Source: a virus (taxonomy: Duplodnaviria > Heunggongvirae > Uroviricota > Caudoviricetes). Taken from it: a stretch of 25,248 nt of DNA. Position 1 is the first letter of the stretch, and each line of letters begins with the position of its first letter. Shown one piece after another: positions 12,227 to 23,609 of the stretch. Below the pieces are notes generated by a model. It had not been told where the DNA came from and searched no databases. It saw only the letters and a program-made list of their open reading frames with translations. The translations under genes and the position numbers were made by a program. The stretch spans positions 1 to 25,248 of the IMG/VR virus record IMGVR_UViG_2700989400_000006; one strand, written 5' to 3'.

Positions 12227-12382
12227 TTACTCCTCAGGTTCGTAAGCTGTGAAGACAGCGACCTCCGTCTGGCCGGTTCGGATTCGTACCTCGCAGAGGT
12301 CTTTCCTCGTTACCAGTGCCGTCACTATGACGGTTAAACAGATGACGATCAGGGCGATTAACATCGCCTTTTGCTGCTTCAT
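12227..12382 (-). CDS. hokD: Hok/Gef-family type I toxin (51 aa)
   Basis: MKQQKAMLIALIVICLTVIVTALVTRKDLCEVRIRTGQTEVAVFTAYEPEE matches my recollection of E. coli HokD (RelF). A perfect 9-bp hairpin (12198-12219) follows the stop, consistent with the folded 3' end of hok-type mRNAs. Confidence 0.9.
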   Translation of the reverse strand: MKQQKAMLIALIVICLTVIVTALVTRKDLCEVRIRTGQTEVAVFTAYEPEE

Positions 12383-12439
12383 AGCCTGCTTCTCCTTGCC
12401 TTTCGGCACGTAAGAGGCTAACCTAGATTTGCCGTTCAT
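12227..12439 (-). CDS. Mok-like upstream reading frame containing hok (70 aa, same frame)
   Basis: In-frame N-terminal extension MNGKSRLASYVPKGKEKQA preceding the Hok methionine, as in chromosomal mokC/hokC pairs (from memory). Confidence 0.5.
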   Translation of the reverse strand: MNGKSRLASYVPKGKEKQAMKQQKAMLIALIVICLTVIVTALVTRKDLCEVRIRTGQTEVAVFTAYEPEE

Positions 12440-12949
12440 AGATTGAGCCTCAGATTAATGTTAAACGTCTTGCAGGACGCGTAATGTTAACTGGGGCTTT
12501 TCTCTATCTGCCTTTGGTGTTCATGCCTGAGGCAGATAGCCTCAAGCACCCGCAGCAATTCTACTTAACTCCCGTCACCTCGCCAATATAAAATCAATCA
12601 GAAAGGCGATCCGTAAGAACAACAGCAAGACAATAAATTGCCATTACAGCCGCAATAGCTAGCGCACATTTGAGAACCAGCACGACAACCTCCTGTATTG
12701 GACGTACACCAATTCTGATAAATATGAGGCTGTCTCATCATTGATTCAATATAACTATTGGGTATAGTTTCTGTGATTTTGTTCTGTAGAAATGGAACAC
12801 AACAACCAGTCACCACCAGCACTTCTTTAAATACGCCAAGTCCGACGCAAGCTAACCTTCTAGTCCGCTTTGAGCGAAGAGCGGACATTGCTAACAGCAT
12901 CCTGTGTGAATCATTACGATCAAATCGATGACTAGATAAGTACAAACCG

Positions 12950-17892: not shown

Positions 17893-18318
17893 TCAATGCA
17901 CAGCCACAATATTTCCTGCAGGGCCACCACGATTCATCTGGTTGAAACCAGCGATCGCCACTGCGACAAAATCATCAGCGTCTCTCACCAGTCGTTCCCG
18001 CGTCTCCACTAGTTCCCGAAAATATGCTGAGCTATGACTGCGCATTCGGGCCACCAGCAGAGGTGGCATTGCTTTTTCGATAGCTGGTAACAACGCCTGA
18101 ATTTTTTTAACCGCATCAGGGGTGTCTTTCTCCACCCAGCGGAAAATTTTCTGAGTATTGCGAGCCAGGGCTTCCGGATGGTTGTCGTCATACAGTTCCG
18201 GGAACGTCATTCCCAGCTCGAAATACGCTTTGGTAATTTTCGCAGCCGGTACTTTTTCGCCGTCCGGATGCGCCCAGGCATTCATCGCCATGCGGATGTG
18301 TTCATGCTTGATTTTCAT
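17893..18318 (-). CDS. YdaT-like protein (CII-position gene of Rac-type immunity regions)
   Basis: 141-aa ORF whose start overlaps the Cro-like gene stop; size and position match Rac YdaT as I recall; no sequence check possible. Confidence 0.5.
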   Translation of the reverse strand: MKIKHEHIRMAMNAWAHPDGEKVPAAKITKAYFELGMTFPELYDDNHPEALARNTQKIFRWVEKDTPDAVKKIQALLPAIEKAMPPLLVARMRSHSSAYFRELVETRERLVRDADDFVAVAIAGFNQMNRGGPAGNIVAVH

Positions 18319-18569
18319 GAATCAACTCCCATCAGCTTTTTCGTAGTAGTTTTATTCCTGCCAATAGTTAAAATTGCATCGGCAGAAAATAATCCGTTTG
18401 ATGCAAGAGCGATTTTTTCAGCGTAATTTGTTTCGCCGGTATATTCTGTGCGAGGCAATTTTCCGTTATCCATCCATTTATAGATTGCTCTTTGGCTGAC
18501 ACCACAAACGTCGGCCACAACAGCAACGCGAACAGTTTTGATTACATCTTCAAGTGTTTTCTGGTTCAT
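18315..18569 (-). CDS. Cro-like HTH regulator (YdaS/DicC-position)
   Basis: 84-aa ORF divergent from the repressor gene; HTH segment VCGVSQRAIYKWMDNGKLP. Confidence 0.65.
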   Translation of the reverse strand: MNQKTLEDVIKTVRVAVVADVCGVSQRAIYKWMDNGKLPRTEYTGETNYAEKIALASNGLFSADAILTIGRNKTTTKKLMGVDS

Positions 18570-18648
18570 ATCACCCTCACAGTGTGAACTTTAAGTACAT
18601 GCTATAACAGAACTGACAGTACATTCAAGAGCGAATATCATTGAACTT
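18570..18648. promoter_or_regulatory. Divergent promoter/operator region between the Cro-like gene and the repressor gene
   Basis: 79-bp intergenic region between divergent start codons; contains two direct AGTACAT motifs (18594-18600, 18618-18624); the same motif family recurs downstream of the repressor gene at 19144-19184. Confidence 0.5.
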
Positions 18649-19068
18649 ATGGTTCATGAAGATAAAGCGCGTAAAGAGTTCGCCAGTAGGCTTGCGCTAG
18701 CCTGTGAAAACGCTGGTTATGAACAACATGGAAGGCAGGCAGAAATTGCCCGTCGAATGAAATTAACACCAAAAGCGGTTAGCAAATGGTTTAATGGCGA
18801 AACAATTCCTCGCCGGGAGAAATTAAGGGAATTAGCAACACTAATAGGAACAACACCAACCTATCTTTTGGGAGAGGATACAGAAGAAAGTGGACAGGTA
18901 CGTTTCTATCAGGAGTTAAATCCAAGACAAAAAATCATCATTGACCTTCTGGACGAGCTCCCTGACAGTGAGACAGATGAACTTTTAAAAACTCTTGAAG
19001 AGAAAAAACAGAAGTACAATGCAATTTACGAAGAGTTAGCACGAAAGAAAAAACAAAAAGCCTCTTAA
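18649..19068 (+). CDS. Prophage repressor, XRE-family HTH (DicA/RacR-type, no S24 peptidase domain)
   Basis: 139-aa ORF with N-terminal HTH (RQAEIARRMKLTPKAVSKWFNGE) and charged helical C-terminus; too short for a LexA-like autocleavage domain; divergent from the Cro-like gene. Confidence 0.8.
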   Translation: MVHEDKARKEFASRLALACENAGYEQHGRQAEIARRMKLTPKAVSKWFNGETIPRREKLRELATLIGTTPTYLLGEDTEESGQVRFYQELNPRQKIIIDLLDELPDSETDELLKTLEEKKQKYNAIYEELARKKKQKAS

Positions 19069-19362
19069 ACCAGCATAAATCCGGTAGCGCCTTCCTCCGG
19101 GTTTGTGCTTCACTTTATCCCATCTCATTTTTTTACACACAAAATGTACTAAAAGTACTTTACAACAATGAACGCAAAGTACATTATATACCTGCCACCC
19201 ACCCCGCCCCACAGAATGCAGGGTAATACTTCGAGTTACCAGGCAGTGGTCAGGGGTTAAGTAGCCAGCCCGAGGCGTAAGAACATGACGGCAGGGTTCA
19301 ACTTTAACTATGCAGCAGGTTTTTGTTCCGCCACCCCGGCGTTAAGGGGAAATGAGGTCAGC

Positions 19363-19515
19363 ATGGATACTATCGATCTTGGCAACAGCGAATCTCTGGT
19401 ATGTGGCGTGTTCCCCAACCAGGACGGTACGTTCACCGCGATGACATATACCAAAAGCAAAACGTTTAAAACCGAAACTGGCGCGCATCGCTGGTTAGCC
19501 AGAAACACTGACTGA
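19363..19515 (+). CDS. Small phage protein (YdfA-like, ~50 aa)
   Basis: Start chosen at ATG 19363 (MDTIDLGNSESLVCGVFPNQDGTF...) with GAGGT upstream; resembles the small first gene of the Qin dicB operon as I recall. Confidence 0.45.
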   Translation: MDTIDLGNSESLVCGVFPNQDGTFTAMTYTKSKTFKTETGAHRWLARNTD

Positions 19516-19526
19516 TGAGGTTGACT

Positions 19527-19916
19527 ATGGAATTTAAAGAGTTACCAAAAGAAATCCAAGAAATTGCAGCACATACACTTCGTCAACGTCTGAACGAAGT
19601 TGCATTAGAAGCTGAAACGAAAAAAGACATTGATAATATGGCTCGTAATGTGCGCGATGCGTTTACCGGACTGTATTCTGTTTCTGTTGAGGGCAATAAC
19701 ATTCCTGACGAACAGGAAGAGAGTACAGACCCCCACAAATTCTGGAAATCTGTAGAGGTCATTGCAAAAGCCAAACTACTGGAACTTAACAACTTATATC
19801 ATCGTGAGAATGATGGTCGTCAATCTTTGCATCATCAGGGAGTCGCCACCCTGATAGCTCTAACGAAAGAGCAAGGCGAATATCATCCAGTGGCATTAAA
19901 CGACACTGTGAAATAG
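19527..19916 (+). CDS. Hypothetical phage protein (129 aa)
   Basis: Start chosen at ATG 19527 (MEFKELPKEIQ...) with GAGG 6 nt upstream; the track start 19515 overlaps the previous stop. Confidence 0.5.
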   Translation: MEFKELPKEIQEIAAHTLRQRLNEVALEAETKKDIDNMARNVRDAFTGLYSVSVEGNNIPDEQEESTDPHKFWKSVEVIAKAKLLELNNLYHRENDGRQSLHHQGVATLIALTKEQGEYHPVALNDTVK

Positions 19917-20437
19917 TCCATCCATGTTTACGGGATAGATAAAGATATATCGCTTCGAAACCATCGACATGGTTTGGATAGCCTTCCTCAGCAGCAAGGT
20001 TATCCCCAAAACATTCAAGAATATAATTTAAACGCGCTGTTTAATAATGAATCTTCCAGCGAGTCTGATTTAGTTTGCTGACCATTTTAATTTTATCCTC
20101 CATTGAGGTTACTGGTTGAGAATGGAGACCACACGTGACAGCGCGTGGTCGTGCGCCGGACACGGATAAGAATCCGGCACAAACAGTTTACTGAAAGGAT
20201 ATATCCCTGAAAAGTCAGGGCATAACGCGAAAGCGCACGGCGAAGTCATTCCTCCCTTTGTTGTGTACTACTGACATCTTCGTCTGTGCGCTTCCGGTTG
20301 TGGCAATCCGCGAAATGGCGCGGCGGTAAGTATGGCGGGGTTATTCCTTCCCCGTTGAGGACACCGGGTTGTCAGGTTGACCATACGCTTAAGTGGCAAC
20401 CCCGCTGCAACGCCCTCTGTTATCAATTTTCTGGTGA

Positions 20438-20495
20438 CGTTTGGCGGTATCAGTTTTACTCCGTGACTGCTCTGCCGCCCTTTTTAAAGTGAATT
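20438..20495 (+). ncRNA. dicF: DicF small RNA (ftsZ-targeting sRNA of the dicB operon)
   Basis: TTTCTGGTGACGTTTGGCGGTATCAGTTTTACTCCGTGACTGCTCTGCCGCCC followed by TTTTT matches the 53-nt DicF sequence as I recall it, including the terminal GC-rich stem and U-tail; it sits upstream of dicB as in Qin. Confidence 0.8.
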
Positions 20496-20668
20496 TTGTG
20501 ATGCGGTGAATGCGGCTCAGCGCACGCGGAACAGTTAAAAAGGCCAGTTGACTTCCGTATTGGTTCTTATGGGTGGGTTCTCTGTATCCGGCGTTAATTA
20601 TTAACTGGTTAACGTCACCTGGAGGCACCAGGCACCGCATCACAAAATTCATTGTTGAGGATGCGATA

Positions 20669-20851
20669 ATGGAAACGTTATTACCAAACGTCAATACGTC
20701 TGAAGGTTGTTTTGAAATTGGTGTCAGAATCAGTAACCCTGTATTTACTGAAGATGCCATTAATAAGAGAAAACACGAACGGGAGCTATTAAATCAAATA
20801 TGCATTGTTTCAATGCTGGCCCGTTTACGCCTGATGCAAAAAGGACGCTGA
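20669..20851 (+). CDS. dicB: Cell-division inhibitor DicB
   Basis: 60-aa ORF METLLPNVNTSEGCFEIGVRISNPVFTEDAINKRKHERELLNQICIVSMLARLRLMQKGR closely matches my recollection of E. coli DicB; GAGGA upstream of the ATG. Confidence 0.85.
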   Translation: METLLPNVNTSEGCFEIGVRISNPVFTEDAINKRKHERELLNQICIVSMLARLRLMQKGR

Positions 20852-20853
20852 CA

Positions 20854-21057
20854 ATGAATACAGTATTTGCACTCGTTCTGACAGTTTTTCTTAATACAGG
20901 CGAGCCAGTCGATCTTGTTATTGGTATACATGACTCAATGAAAGAATGCATGGCTGCCGCAGCGGAACAGAAAATTCCCGGCAACTGTTATCCGGTTGAT
21001 AAAGTTATTCGCATGGACAATAACGAAATCCCGGCAGGACTTAAAACAGCACCGTAA
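20854..21057 (+). CDS. YdfD-like small protein (67 aa, N-terminal hydrophobic segment)
   Basis: Start chosen at ATG 20854 (MNTVFALVLTVFLNTGEP...) with AAGGA upstream, immediately after dicB as ydfD is in Qin (from memory). Confidence 0.5.
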   Translation: MNTVFALVLTVFLNTGEPVDLVIGIHDSMKECMAAAAEQKIPGNCYPVDKVIRMDNNEIPAGLKTAP

Positions 21058-21137: not shown

Positions 21138-23609
21138 ATGAGTAAAGTCTTTATTTGCGCCGCCATTCCGGACGAACAGGCAATAAAGGAAGAAGGTGCA
21201 GTCGCTGTAGCCACTGCCATTGAAGCCGGCGACGAACGCCGCGCCCGAGCCAAATTTACCTGGCAATTCCTGGAGCAATATCCGGCTGCTCAGGACTGCG
21301 CTTATAAATTTCTTGTCTGCGAGGATAAACCCGGCATGCCCCGCCCTGCCATCGACTCCTGGGATACCGAATATATGCTGGAAAACCGCTGGGATGAGGA
21401 AGGCGCTTCCTTTGTCCCGGTCGAACCAGAATCCGATCCGATGAACGTCAATTTTGACAAGCTGTCCCCTGAAGTACAGAACGCGGTCCTGGTTAAGTTC
21501 GACACATGTGAAAACATCACCGTTGATATGGTTATTAGCGCACAGGAATTGTTGCAGGAAGACATGGCAACATTCGACGGACATATCGTTGAAGCGTTGA
21601 TGAAAATGCCAGAAGTTAACGCCATGTATCCGGAGCTTAAGTTGCACGCCATTGGGTGGGTTAAGCATAAATGTATTCCTGGTGCTAAATGGCCCGAAAT
21701 TCAGGCAGAGATGCGCATCTGGAAAAAACGTCGCGAAGGTGAACGCAAGGAAACCGGAAAATACACGTCTGTTGTTGATCTCGCCCGCGCCAGAGCCAAT
21801 CAACAGTACACTGACAATTCAACAGGAAAAATCAGCCCGGTCATTGCTGCCACTCATCGCGAATACAAGCAGACATGGAAAACACTGGATGACGAACTGG
21901 CCTACGCTCTCTGGCCTGGTGATGTGGATGCCGGAAACATTGACGGCAGCATCCATCGCTGGGCAAAAAATGAAGTTATCGACAACGACCGCGAAGACTG
22001 GAAGCGTATCTCGGCATCAATGCGCAAACAGCCTGATGCCCTTCGCTACGACCGCCAGACTATTTTTGGCCTTGTCCGTGAACGTCCGATCGACATTCAC
22101 AAAGACCCTGTGACACTGAACAAATACATTACTGAATACCTGACTACAAAGGGCGTGTTTGAAGATGAAGGAAGAAATCAGAGCGCAACTGATACTCTCT
22201 CGTCGCCAGTACCAGAAACTGATGCAGTGGAAACGGCAATTCCGGACAACGAAAAAACCGAATGCAAAGTGGAAGTCGAACCATCTGTAGAGCGTGAGGG
22301 GCCGTTCTACTTCCTCTTCACCGACAAGGATGGCGAAAAATATGGTCGCGCAAACAAACTTTCTGGTCTGAATAAGGCGCTGACTGCAGGGGCTACTGAA
22401 ATCACGAAAGAAGAATATTTTGCCCGTAAAAACGGTACATACTCAGGTTCACAACAAAATACTGGTGCATCTGACACGACCGCACAACCAGAGCCGGTAA
22501 AAGTTACCGCTGACGAAGTAAACAAAATTATGCAGGCAGCCAATATCAGCCAGCCTGACGCCGATAAGTTGCTTGCTGTATCACGTGGTGAATTTGTTGC
22601 AGGGATTAGCGACCCGAATGATCCGAAATGGGTGAAGGGGATTGAAACCCGCGATTCAGTGAATCAGAACCAGCAAGAAACGGAACAGAACGACCAGAAA
22701 GCAGAACAAAACAGCCCAAATGCGTTACAAAACGAGCCAGAAACGAAACAACCTGAGCCAGTAGCGCAACAGGAAGCGGAAAAAGTCTGCACCGCATGCG
22801 GTCAGACCGGCGGCGGCAACTGCCCTGATTGTGGTGCGGTGATGGGCGACGCAACATACCAGGAAACATTCGATGAAGAGAATCAGGTTGAAGTTCAGGA
22901 AAATGATCCGGAGGAAATGGAAGGCGCTGAACATCCACACAAGGAGAATGCTGGCAGCGCTCAGGACCACGCCAGCAATAATGAAACTGGCGAGACGGCA
23001 GATCCCTTAATTGCGGTGAACGGTCATCACGTTATCACATCCACCAGCAGGACGTGTGACCATCTAATGATCGACCTTGAAACCATGGGAAAAAATCCTG
23101 ATGCCCCGATTATCTCAATAGGTGCAATATTTTTCGATCCGCAAACCGGAGATATGGGACCGGAATTTAGTAAGACTATCGATCTGGAAACTGCTGGCGG
23201 AGTCATTGATCGGGACACCATTAAATGGTGGCTTAAGCAATCACGCGAAGCGCAATCTGCCATTATGACCGATGAAATCCCGTTAGATGATGCACTGTTA
23301 CAATTGCGGGAATTTATCGACGAAAACTCCGGTGAATTTTTTGTTCAGGTCTGGGGAAATGGAGCCAACTTCGACAACACGATTTTGCGCCGTTCATACG
23401 AACGGCAGGGGATCCCCTGCCCGTGGCGTTACTACAACGATCGCGATGTACGCACAATCGTTGAGCTGGGGAAAGCCATAGACTTCGATGCCAGAACGGC
23501 TATTCCATTCGAAGGTGAGCGCCATAATGCACTTGATGACGCCCGTTACCAGGCAAAATACGTTTCAGTTATCTGGCAAAAACTGATCCCGAGTCAGGCT
23601 GATTCTTAA
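21138..23609 (+). CDS. Large phage exonuclease (823 aa) with central CxxC-CxxC zinc ribbon and C-terminal DEDDh-type 3'-5' exonuclease domain
   Basis: C-terminal motifs MIDLETMG (Exo I), WGNGANFDNTIL (Exo II) and HNALDDARYQAKY (Exo III, His type); central CTACGQTGGGNCPDCG; acidic/Gln-rich linker before it. The antisense ORF 21111..21803 is rejected. Confidence 0.75.
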   Translation: MSKVFICAAIPDEQAIKEEGAVAVATAIEAGDERRARAKFTWQFLEQYPAAQDCAYKFLVCEDKPGMPRPAIDSWDTEYMLENRWDEEGASFVPVEPESDPMNVNFDKLSPEVQNAVLVKFDTCENITVDMVISAQELLQEDMATFDGHIVEALMKMPEVNAMYPELKLHAIGWVKHKCIPGAKWPEIQAEMRIWKKRREGERKETGKYTSVVDLARARANQQYTDNSTGKISPVIAATHREYKQTWKTLDDELAYALWPGDVDAGNIDGSIHRWAKNEVIDNDREDWKRISASMRKQPDALRYDRQTIFGLVRERPIDIHKDPVTLNKYITEYLTTKGVFEDEGRNQSATDTLSSPVPETDAVETAIPDNEKTECKVEVEPSVEREGPFYFLFTDKDGEKYGRANKLSGLNKALTAGATEITKEEYFARKNGTYSGSQQNTGASDTTAQPEPVKVTADEVNKIMQAANISQPDADKLLAVSRGEFVAGISDPNDPKWVKGIETRDSVNQNQQETEQNDQKAEQNSPNALQNEPETKQPEPVAQQEAEKVCTACGQTGGGNCPDCGAVMGDATYQETFDEENQVEVQENDPEEMEGAEHPHKENAGSAQDHASNNETGETADPLIAVNGHHVITSTSRTCDHLMIDLETMGKNPDAPIISIGAIFFDPQTGDMGPEFSKTIDLETAGGVIDRDTIKWWLKQSREAQSAIMTDEIPLDDALLQLREFIDENSGEFFVQVWGNGANFDNTILRRSYERQGIPCPWRYYNDRDVRTIVELGKAIDFDARTAIPFEGERHNALDDARYQAKYVSVIWQKLIPSQADS

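Follow-up and report, generated by a model that had tools for sequence, protein, structure and literature searches.

Does the stretch at positions 19917–21057 of the window, by which we mean the whole 25,248-nucleotide (nt) sequence of IMG/VR record IMGVR_UViG_2700989400_000006 analysed here, hold a working copy of the dicBF cell-division-inhibitor module of Escherichia coli lambdoid prophages, or what is left of one? Judged from its sequence, the stretch is an intact copy of this known module, comprising the small RNA (sRNA) DicF, the protein DicB and a YdfD-type protein. We put at roughly 0.9 the probability that it represents the dicBF-bearing part of the early-left operon in a Qin-type lambdoid prophage that is less decayed than Qin of E. 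coli K-12. The module is a known system and an extremely widespread one, and the copy described here is real but ordinary; a match to the module was present in 4732 of 5426 complete E. coli genomes (87 %), at a median of 2 copies each.

An Rfam covariance search over the whole window, a check that the original prediction had proposed, returned two matches above threshold, DicF and sok, and called DicF well clear of its cut-off. The DicF model (RF00039) matched 20429–20480 on the + strand over its full length (76.7 bits, where the gathering score is 48, model positions 1–52 of 52, E=1.4e-15), and with one extra 5′ U, as in the K-12 annotation, 53/53 nt are identical to K-12 dicF (b1574). The target-pairing seed is unchanged relative to the characterised K-12 DicF, and no disabling seed change of the kind that the original prediction had allowed for was found. 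The RNA consists of a single-stranded 5′ seed, a terminator hairpin (GGCGG...CCGCC) and a U-run, the 3′ intrinsic terminator reading GGCGGUAUCAG...CUGCUCUGCCGCC followed by CUUUUU. DicF had been described as intact at 20438–20495; its intactness stands on the full model match and the identity to K-12, but those limits do not, since they begin 10 nt inside the 5′ seed region and overrun the end of the RNA by 15 nt (actual position 20428–20480). When one genome from each species was scanned with a DicF pattern, only 8 loci emerged, in Escherichia and Shigella plus metagenome-assembled genomes (MAGs) assigned to unrelated taxa, which leaves no deep phylogenetic depth for covariation. The exact DicF matches in MAGs were under the labels Peptostreptococcaceae, Veillonella parvula, Collinsella and ‘Proteobacteria bacterium’, and these are most likely mis-binned or contaminating E. 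coli prophage contigs.

Downstream of DicF, dicB and a YdfD-like open reading frame (ORF) are both present as anticipated, with Pfam hits far above the cut-offs. DicB matches its profile at 127.5 bits (cut-off 27; profile positions 1–59 of 62) and is 92 % identical to K-12 DicB over 59 amino acids (aa). Its gene is preceded by the Shine-Dalgarno sequence GAGGA (20657–20661), and its ATG sits within a longer ORF whose GTG start is at 20573. The protein has 60 aa (ending in MQKGR and a stop codon) and not the 62 aa of the K-12 form, so that the last two residues are missing; the early stop is a TGG to TGA change relative to E. coli Ceylon31, the nearest complete genome (98.8 % identity across the module). 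Among the 160 unique homologous loci that we collected from IMG/VR and genomes for comparison, 20 carry the 60-aa allele, and the exact protein is found on 997 contigs. Because the allele is so widespread, the 60-aa DicB is an established allele and not a private inactivating lesion. Within the family, variation is greatest in the last three residues (CAQ, CWQ, YWQ, RWQ, ERQ), and loss of the last two probably leaves function unaffected. The ydfD homologue begins 2 nt past the dicB stop codon; its product matches the DUF1482 profile at 80.9 bits (cut-off 25) and is 71 % identical to K-12 YdfD. It has 67 aa as opposed to 63 aa in K-12, the four additional residues being due to a 1-nt insertion near the end of the K-12 gene, and at least 1000 contigs encode this exact protein. 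The products of lambda kil and Rac kilR are, like DicB, small inhibitors of host division expressed from a lambdoid early leftward operon, but they are unrelated to DicB in sequence and have no sRNA partner. Some related phages have a Kil gene in the place of dicB.

Alignment with the Qin dicB operon, the second check that had been suggested, covered DicF, DicB, the YdfD homologue and the leader from ~20100. The K-12 operon (ydfABC-dicF-dicB-ydfDE) resembles the window in gene order and in orientation downstream of the repressor gene. Homology of the leader begins at ~20100, in the K-12 ydfC–dicF spacer; the interval 20290–20540 is ~99 % identical, and both of the RNase III helices described below are kept. 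Ceylon31 has the same prophage adjoining rspB, which is the site of K-12 Qin, and the gene order agrees with that of K-12 Qin and of 98.8 %-identical E. coli prophages inserted beside rspB.

How, then, would DicF be released from its transcript? Two long helices flank the sRNA (Table 1). The upstream one is a 23-bp helix (20221–20245/20278–20302) with a variable apical part, in which 96 % of cells are paired in the 160 unique loci, compared with 33–40 % for shifted partners. In K-12, a 190-nt DicF precursor receives its 5′ end from RNase III, and RNase E afterwards generates that of the 53-nt form (PMC10448788); as K-12 and the window are colinear here, the precursor 5′ end maps to ~20291, in the 3′ arm of this helix. 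The downstream helix closes the spacer between DicF and dicB with 21 bp (20488–20508/20633–20653), 19 of them perfect (an inverted repeat with 100 % complementarity), and it encloses three or four internal hairpins and stops 4 nt ahead of the dicB Shine-Dalgarno sequence. It is 99 % paired in the unique loci (29–48 % in the shifted-partner control for both stems together), and in K-12 and Ceylon31 the changes within the 19-bp stem are G·U wobbles that preserve its pairing. The DicF–dicB interval folds better than every shuffle (z=−4.73), and the folds that were compared with shuffles gave z=−4.2 to −4.7. RNase III cleavage of read-through transcripts yields a 72-nt DicF (PMC5069750; PMC9438474), the 3′ end of which maps to ~20499, in the 5′ arm of the downstream helix. 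From these positions, we infer that the two helices are the upstream and downstream RNase III sites, respectively.

The leader ahead of DicF (19917–20428, 512 nt) is itself structured, with a folding energy of −170.8 kcal/mol, as against −144.2 ± 6.4 kcal/mol for shuffled sequences (z=−4.15, better than every shuffle). Three hairpins had been listed in it (20127–20150, 20155–20178 and 20205–20220), and all three are in the sequence; chance would be expected to yield isolated short hairpins of this kind, whereas the fold of the leader as a whole is more stable than that of every shuffle. Hairpin 1 forms 8/9 pairs between its arms (20127–20135/20142–20150), and nearly all related loci have a hairpin at this position, in 2–3 sequence families (e.g. 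CUCCAC/GUGGAG in K-12). Hairpin 2 (arms 20152–20160/20173–20181) has an invariant stem wherever it is present, with variation only in the loop. Hairpin 3 is reduced to 4 bp in about one-third of loci, K-12 included, and its variant CUCUGA/UCAGAG is compensatory. The idea that DicF is cut out of a longer precursor is supported, but not by way of these hairpins: the published cleavage positions coincide with the 20221–20302 and 20488–20653 helices and not with the three hairpins.

Between the upstream helix and DicF lies a precursor core made up of a CCGCG/CGCGG hairpin, a variable covarying hairpin and a GGGUUGUCAGGU...UGGCAACCC hairpin. In loci chosen through DicF, 20289–20528 is the most conserved part of the module (94–99 % identity, compared with 67–94 % for dicB and 54–85 % for ydfD), and nucleotide diversity is 0.03–0.11 in the core, as against 0.09–0.26 and 0.24–0.34 at third codon positions of dicB and ydfD, respectively. 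In loci chosen through DicB, however, the core interval is no more conserved than dicB. The general statement that the precursor is more conserved than coding DNA was therefore dropped, being true in the DicF-chosen sample and false in the DicB-chosen one, and the conservation of the core is in part an ascertainment or linkage effect. Two blocks of the core are essentially invariant in all haplotypes, and only these are robustly so. The consensus from a 21-sequence alignment of the core has four helices that are 97.8 % paired, with two-sided changes in 3/23 pairs; variation in the sequence is too slight for covariation to prove the structure.

The core is found beyond dicBF modules. It recurs in the leader of the ban operon of phages P1 and P7, where it is annotated as a ‘dicF-like region’ (P1 68791–68892) and is ~79–83 % identical over ~97 nt, ~45 nt past the C1-controlled promoter; phages cdtI and 2H10 carry it just downstream of cI. 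The P1/P7 leader is like the window in that the core stands just past a repressor-controlled promoter and precedes a short RNA that has a terminator hairpin and U-run. Unlike the window, it does not share the upstream RNase III helix sequence, its post-core RNA differs from DicF, and tRNA genes and ban follow in place of dicB and ydfD. The tRNAs after the P1 element raised the idea of a tRNA-like element or RNase P substrate, which we rejected because ARAGORN finds no tRNA in the window.

What follows the core also varies among closer relatives. At the DicF position, many related prophages with a near-identical core, RNase III stem and dicB carry other short terminator-hairpin RNAs, for example ACCUUUUGGCGGGUAUCCGUUUUUUGUUUUCCCUUGUGAUACCCGCCCUUUUU, and in P1 the core is followed by yet another. 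The Rfam DicF model left several of these cassette variants undetected and scored others at 34–45 bits, below threshold; the window has the canonical DicF, and at least two classes elsewhere are not recognised by the model. On this evidence, the sRNA at the DicF position looks like an exchangeable cassette. The spacer after DicF (20492–20646) also matched the Rfam model of STnc100 (RF02076), a prophage sRNA of Salmonella and Shiga toxin-producing E. coli, at 33.5 bits, short of the gathering score, which is 47 (E=2.8e-5 with 1.2 kb searched). The spacer aligns to model positions 21–154 with the same closing helix and a UCACCNGGAGGCACCNGGCACC hairpin, and the sub-threshold match was reproduced in six other loci as well as K-12 Qin (34.4 bits). 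The genomic position is different: the window spacer lies between DicF and dicB, canonical copies of STnc100 in the late region, downstream of stx2 (PMC12370729). The STnc100 family has recently been linked to PasD (bioRxiv 10.64898/2026.05.13.724894). If RNase III cut both arms of the closing helix, the spacer could be set free as a separate RNA of ~140 nt.

It is conceivable, though we think it rather unlikely, that the core bracketed by the two RNase III helices is a portable ‘small-RNA launcher’ of lambdoid prophages and P1-like phages, behind which seed-plus-terminator cassettes are swapped in, the core itself being functional (in precise RNase E release or terminator read-through) and the STnc100-like spacer a second stable RNA. 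This is the only mildly new angle offered by the analysis, and it concerns the family and not this window. The idea of a launcher-like core with exchangeable cassettes is partly anticipated by the ‘dicF-like region’ annotation in P1, and Faubladier and Bouché reportedly anticipated part of it in 1994.

Upstream of the leader, the window departs from K-12. The first operon gene, ydfA, aligns with its K-12 counterpart, but where K-12 Qin has ydfB and ydfC, the window has a 129-aa ORF and a 184-nt spacer. Alignment with K-12 and Ceylon31 confirmed that ydfB and ydfC are absent, as had been remarked. The 129-aa ORF, which gave no Pfam match, is a hypothetical protein in Ceylon31, and its exact protein is found on 97 contigs. 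The spacer is matched neither in K-12 Qin nor in the phage collection, in which hits start at ~20150 of the window, and it is present over at least 80 % of its length in only 9 of 211 fetched loci. Ceylon31 was seen to have ydfB, a ydfC-like gene and the 129-aa ORF together, and for this reason the arrangement in the window looks like a deletion or recombination variant. A candidate reverse-strand pseudogene at 19786–20040 was rejected, as it finds no support in the ORF list and the 129-aa ORF on the + strand has a strong PHROG match.

The immunity genes differ too. The helix-turn-helix (HTH) repressor (18649–19068) is 29 % identical to DicA, and the divergent Cro-like HTH gene has no similarity to DicC; the pair spans 18315–19068, and a YdaT-family gene (17893–18318, − strand) follows the Cro-like gene. 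It would seem that a different immunity type drives the same payload. A predicted promoter lies between the repressor gene and ydfA, at the position of dicBp and lambda PL, in a region that aligns with the K-12 dicA–ydfA intergenic region, and a 10-bp inverted repeat (19155–19182) overlaps it. GTAC-containing inverted repeats were also observed to overlap this PL-like promoter (19155–19187) and are likely to be operators of a different specificity.

Table 1. Positions of the features of the dicBF module and its surroundings, in window coordinates unless another sequence is named
Feature	Position	Strand	Basis or remark
Predicted sigma-70 promoter, TTTACA-17-CATTAT	19159–19187	+	Consensus scan only
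ydfA, DUF1391, 50 aa, first operon gene	19363–19515	+	Pfam PF07151, 96.5 bits; aligned with K-12 ydfA
ORF129, 129 aa	19527–19916	+	PHROG 1363, 131.6 bits; unknown function
Lineage-specific non-coding spacer, 184 nt	19917–20100	+	K-12 alignment
Hairpin 1, GACCACACG/CGCGTGGTC	20127–20150	+	Inverted repeat
Hairpin 2, GCCGGA/TCCGGC core at 20155–20178	20152–20181	+	Inverted repeat
Hairpin 3, CCCUGA-AAAG-UCAGGG	20205–20220	+	Sequence, fold
Long hairpin with 23-bp helix	20221–20302	+	Minimum free energy fold
Precursor core, ~100 nt, nearly invariant	20306–20404	+	94–99 % identity, 106 loci
DicF sRNA, 53 nt	20428–20480	+	Rfam RF00039; identity to K-12 b1574
Structured DicF–dicB spacer	20488–20653	+	Inverted repeat and fold
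dicB, 60-aa allele	20669–20851	+	Pfam PF05358
ydfD homologue, DUF1482, 67 aa	20854–21057	+	Pfam PF07358
Core matches in fetched phage loci	P1 2501–2595; P7 601–698; cdtI and 2H10 1201–1326
Cassette-variant loci L144, L175, L211, L180, L133 and L145	~1260–1312 of each (= window 20415–20485)

By analogy with K-12, transcription would start at the repressor-controlled PL-like promoter upstream of ydfA and pass through ydfA and the 129-aa ORF into the structured non-coding leader. RNase III would cut the 23-bp helix and free a precursor of ~190 nt, from which RNase E, cutting the AU-rich single strand just before 20428, would produce the 53-nt DicF, with a 3′ end set by its own intrinsic terminator (20442–20480 plus the U-run). 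Transcripts that read through this terminator would fold into the 21-bp helix, and RNase III cleavage there would yield the 72-nt DicF and separate off the dicB-ydfD mRNA. Because DicF is identical to the K-12 sRNA, it should pair with the same targets, namely the ftsZ, xylR, pykA and manX mRNAs, through Hfq, and repress them. DicB would recruit MinC to the septum, blocking formation of the FtsZ ring, and would inhibit ManYZ-dependent entry of phage DNA, while the YdfD homologue would act as a small membrane lysis protein.

Could the module instead be a decaying, silent remnant that no longer inhibits division? The premature end of DicB relative to the closest relative would fit this, the loss of ydfB/ydfC would mark erosion, and K-12 Qin is itself a decayed prophage; but the exact 60-aa DicB is spread over many contigs and loci and differs where the family is most variable anyway, DicF and both RNase III helices are intact, and full-length genes flank the module (xis, int, replication, Q, lysis and the 823-aa exonuclease that is a pseudogene in K-12), so that we consider a remnant very unlikely. 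Several points do weigh against an intact module that behaves as in K-12. The identity and conservation of every sequence element are matters of observation; expression, processing, filamentation and ManYZ-dependent phage exclusion are all things that we infer from K-12 studies, and the cleavage positions were mapped by RNA length and not by direct alignment to published primer-extension data. DicB without its last two residues may be altered in its interactions with MinC, ZipA or ManYZ. With ydfB and ydfC missing, ~580 nt of other sequence (ORF129 and the spacer) precede the conserved leader, and transcript stability could be affected. Finally, given a repressor that is only 29 % identical to DicA and a Cro-like partner unrelated to DicC, induction signals may differ from those in K-12.

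The two remaining alternatives concern the leader. That it encodes one or more unannotated small proteins is highly improbable, even though ORFs of 46–68 codons exist on both strands (e.g. 20286–20492 on +, 20109–20249 and 20268–20426 on −). No ORF within 19917–20428 is annotated in K-12 or the closest RefSeq genomes, none has a conserved convincing Shine-Dalgarno sequence and start codon, and a shared GCGCCGGACACGG block lies in different frames in K-12 and the window. The longest leader ORFs cross the 20336–20362 hairpin, in which homologues have ±1-nt indels, and this argues against coding; with frame-breaking indels and no annotation, the small ORFs were ruled out, in keeping with the original prediction that no credible ORF lies upstream of DicF. 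We are less dismissive of the suggestion that the 20306–20404 core is a cis-acting RNA, either a scaffold that positions RNase E for the sRNA that follows or a put-like element that alters RNA polymerase such that transcription continues past the DicF terminator to dicB, exo, xis and int, and regard it as a tentative possibility. The near-invariance of the core beside variable coding DNA, its recurrence close behind phage repressor-controlled promoters or cI in P1/P7, cdtI and 2H10, the different terminator-hairpin RNAs that follow it and the lack of an N-like gene between promoter and DicF terminator (by ORF list and Pfam) are all consistent with such a role. However, covariation is weak in a sequence that hardly varies, the loci were picked through DicF or DicB, so that linkage or recent recombination may explain part of the conservation, and the excess over dicB disappears in the DicB-chosen sample. 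Homology to put-like antiterminators was not borne out in an nhmmer search by sequence similarity only, in which a 20292–20428 profile built from 101 unique sequences had no hit (best E>8) in HK022 22000–33000, a range assumed to cover putL and putR, as the sparse annotation names neither put nor immunity genes. Simple processing by RNase III plus RNase E explains the published K-12 data (PMC10448788).

An intact dicBF segment of a Qin-type prophage also agrees with its surroundings. Pfam and PHROG protein profiles identify the window as the regulatory part, early and late, of a lambdoid prophage, ordered as terminase, lysis genes, Q, replication genes, the divergent HTH pair, ydfA, the dicBF module, an exonuclease of 823 aa, xis and int. 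In K-12 Qin, the last three are pseudogenes; here they are intact. The exonuclease gene (21138–23609, + strand) encodes a C-terminal Rv2179c-like 3′–5′ exoribonuclease domain (PF16473, 226.5 bits) and starts where K-12 has only the ydfE pseudogene, broken by IS2; with an intact gene at this place, the window presents the left arm of Qin in its undecayed state. Elsewhere in the prophage, a full-length sok antisense RNA (Rfam RF01794, 111.7 bits; 12377–12551, − strand) overlaps a hok-type ORF (12227–12439, − strand), together forming a hok/sok toxin–antitoxin locus within the prophage, much as K-12 Qin contains hokD.

For annotation, the value of this locus is that DicF and its precursor can be placed exactly, whereas automatic annotation of the closest genome left both unmarked. 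For Qin, the window shows the ancestral left arm of the K-12 prophage, with exonuclease, xis and int intact. The prophage apparently has a complete and functional module for division inhibition and superinfection exclusion, to go by what is known of K-12. Few parts of this module are as well conserved as the non-coding precursor core and its two RNase III stems, and a conserved core and RNase III stems around an exchangeable sRNA make a natural system for studying the evolution of phage regulatory RNAs.

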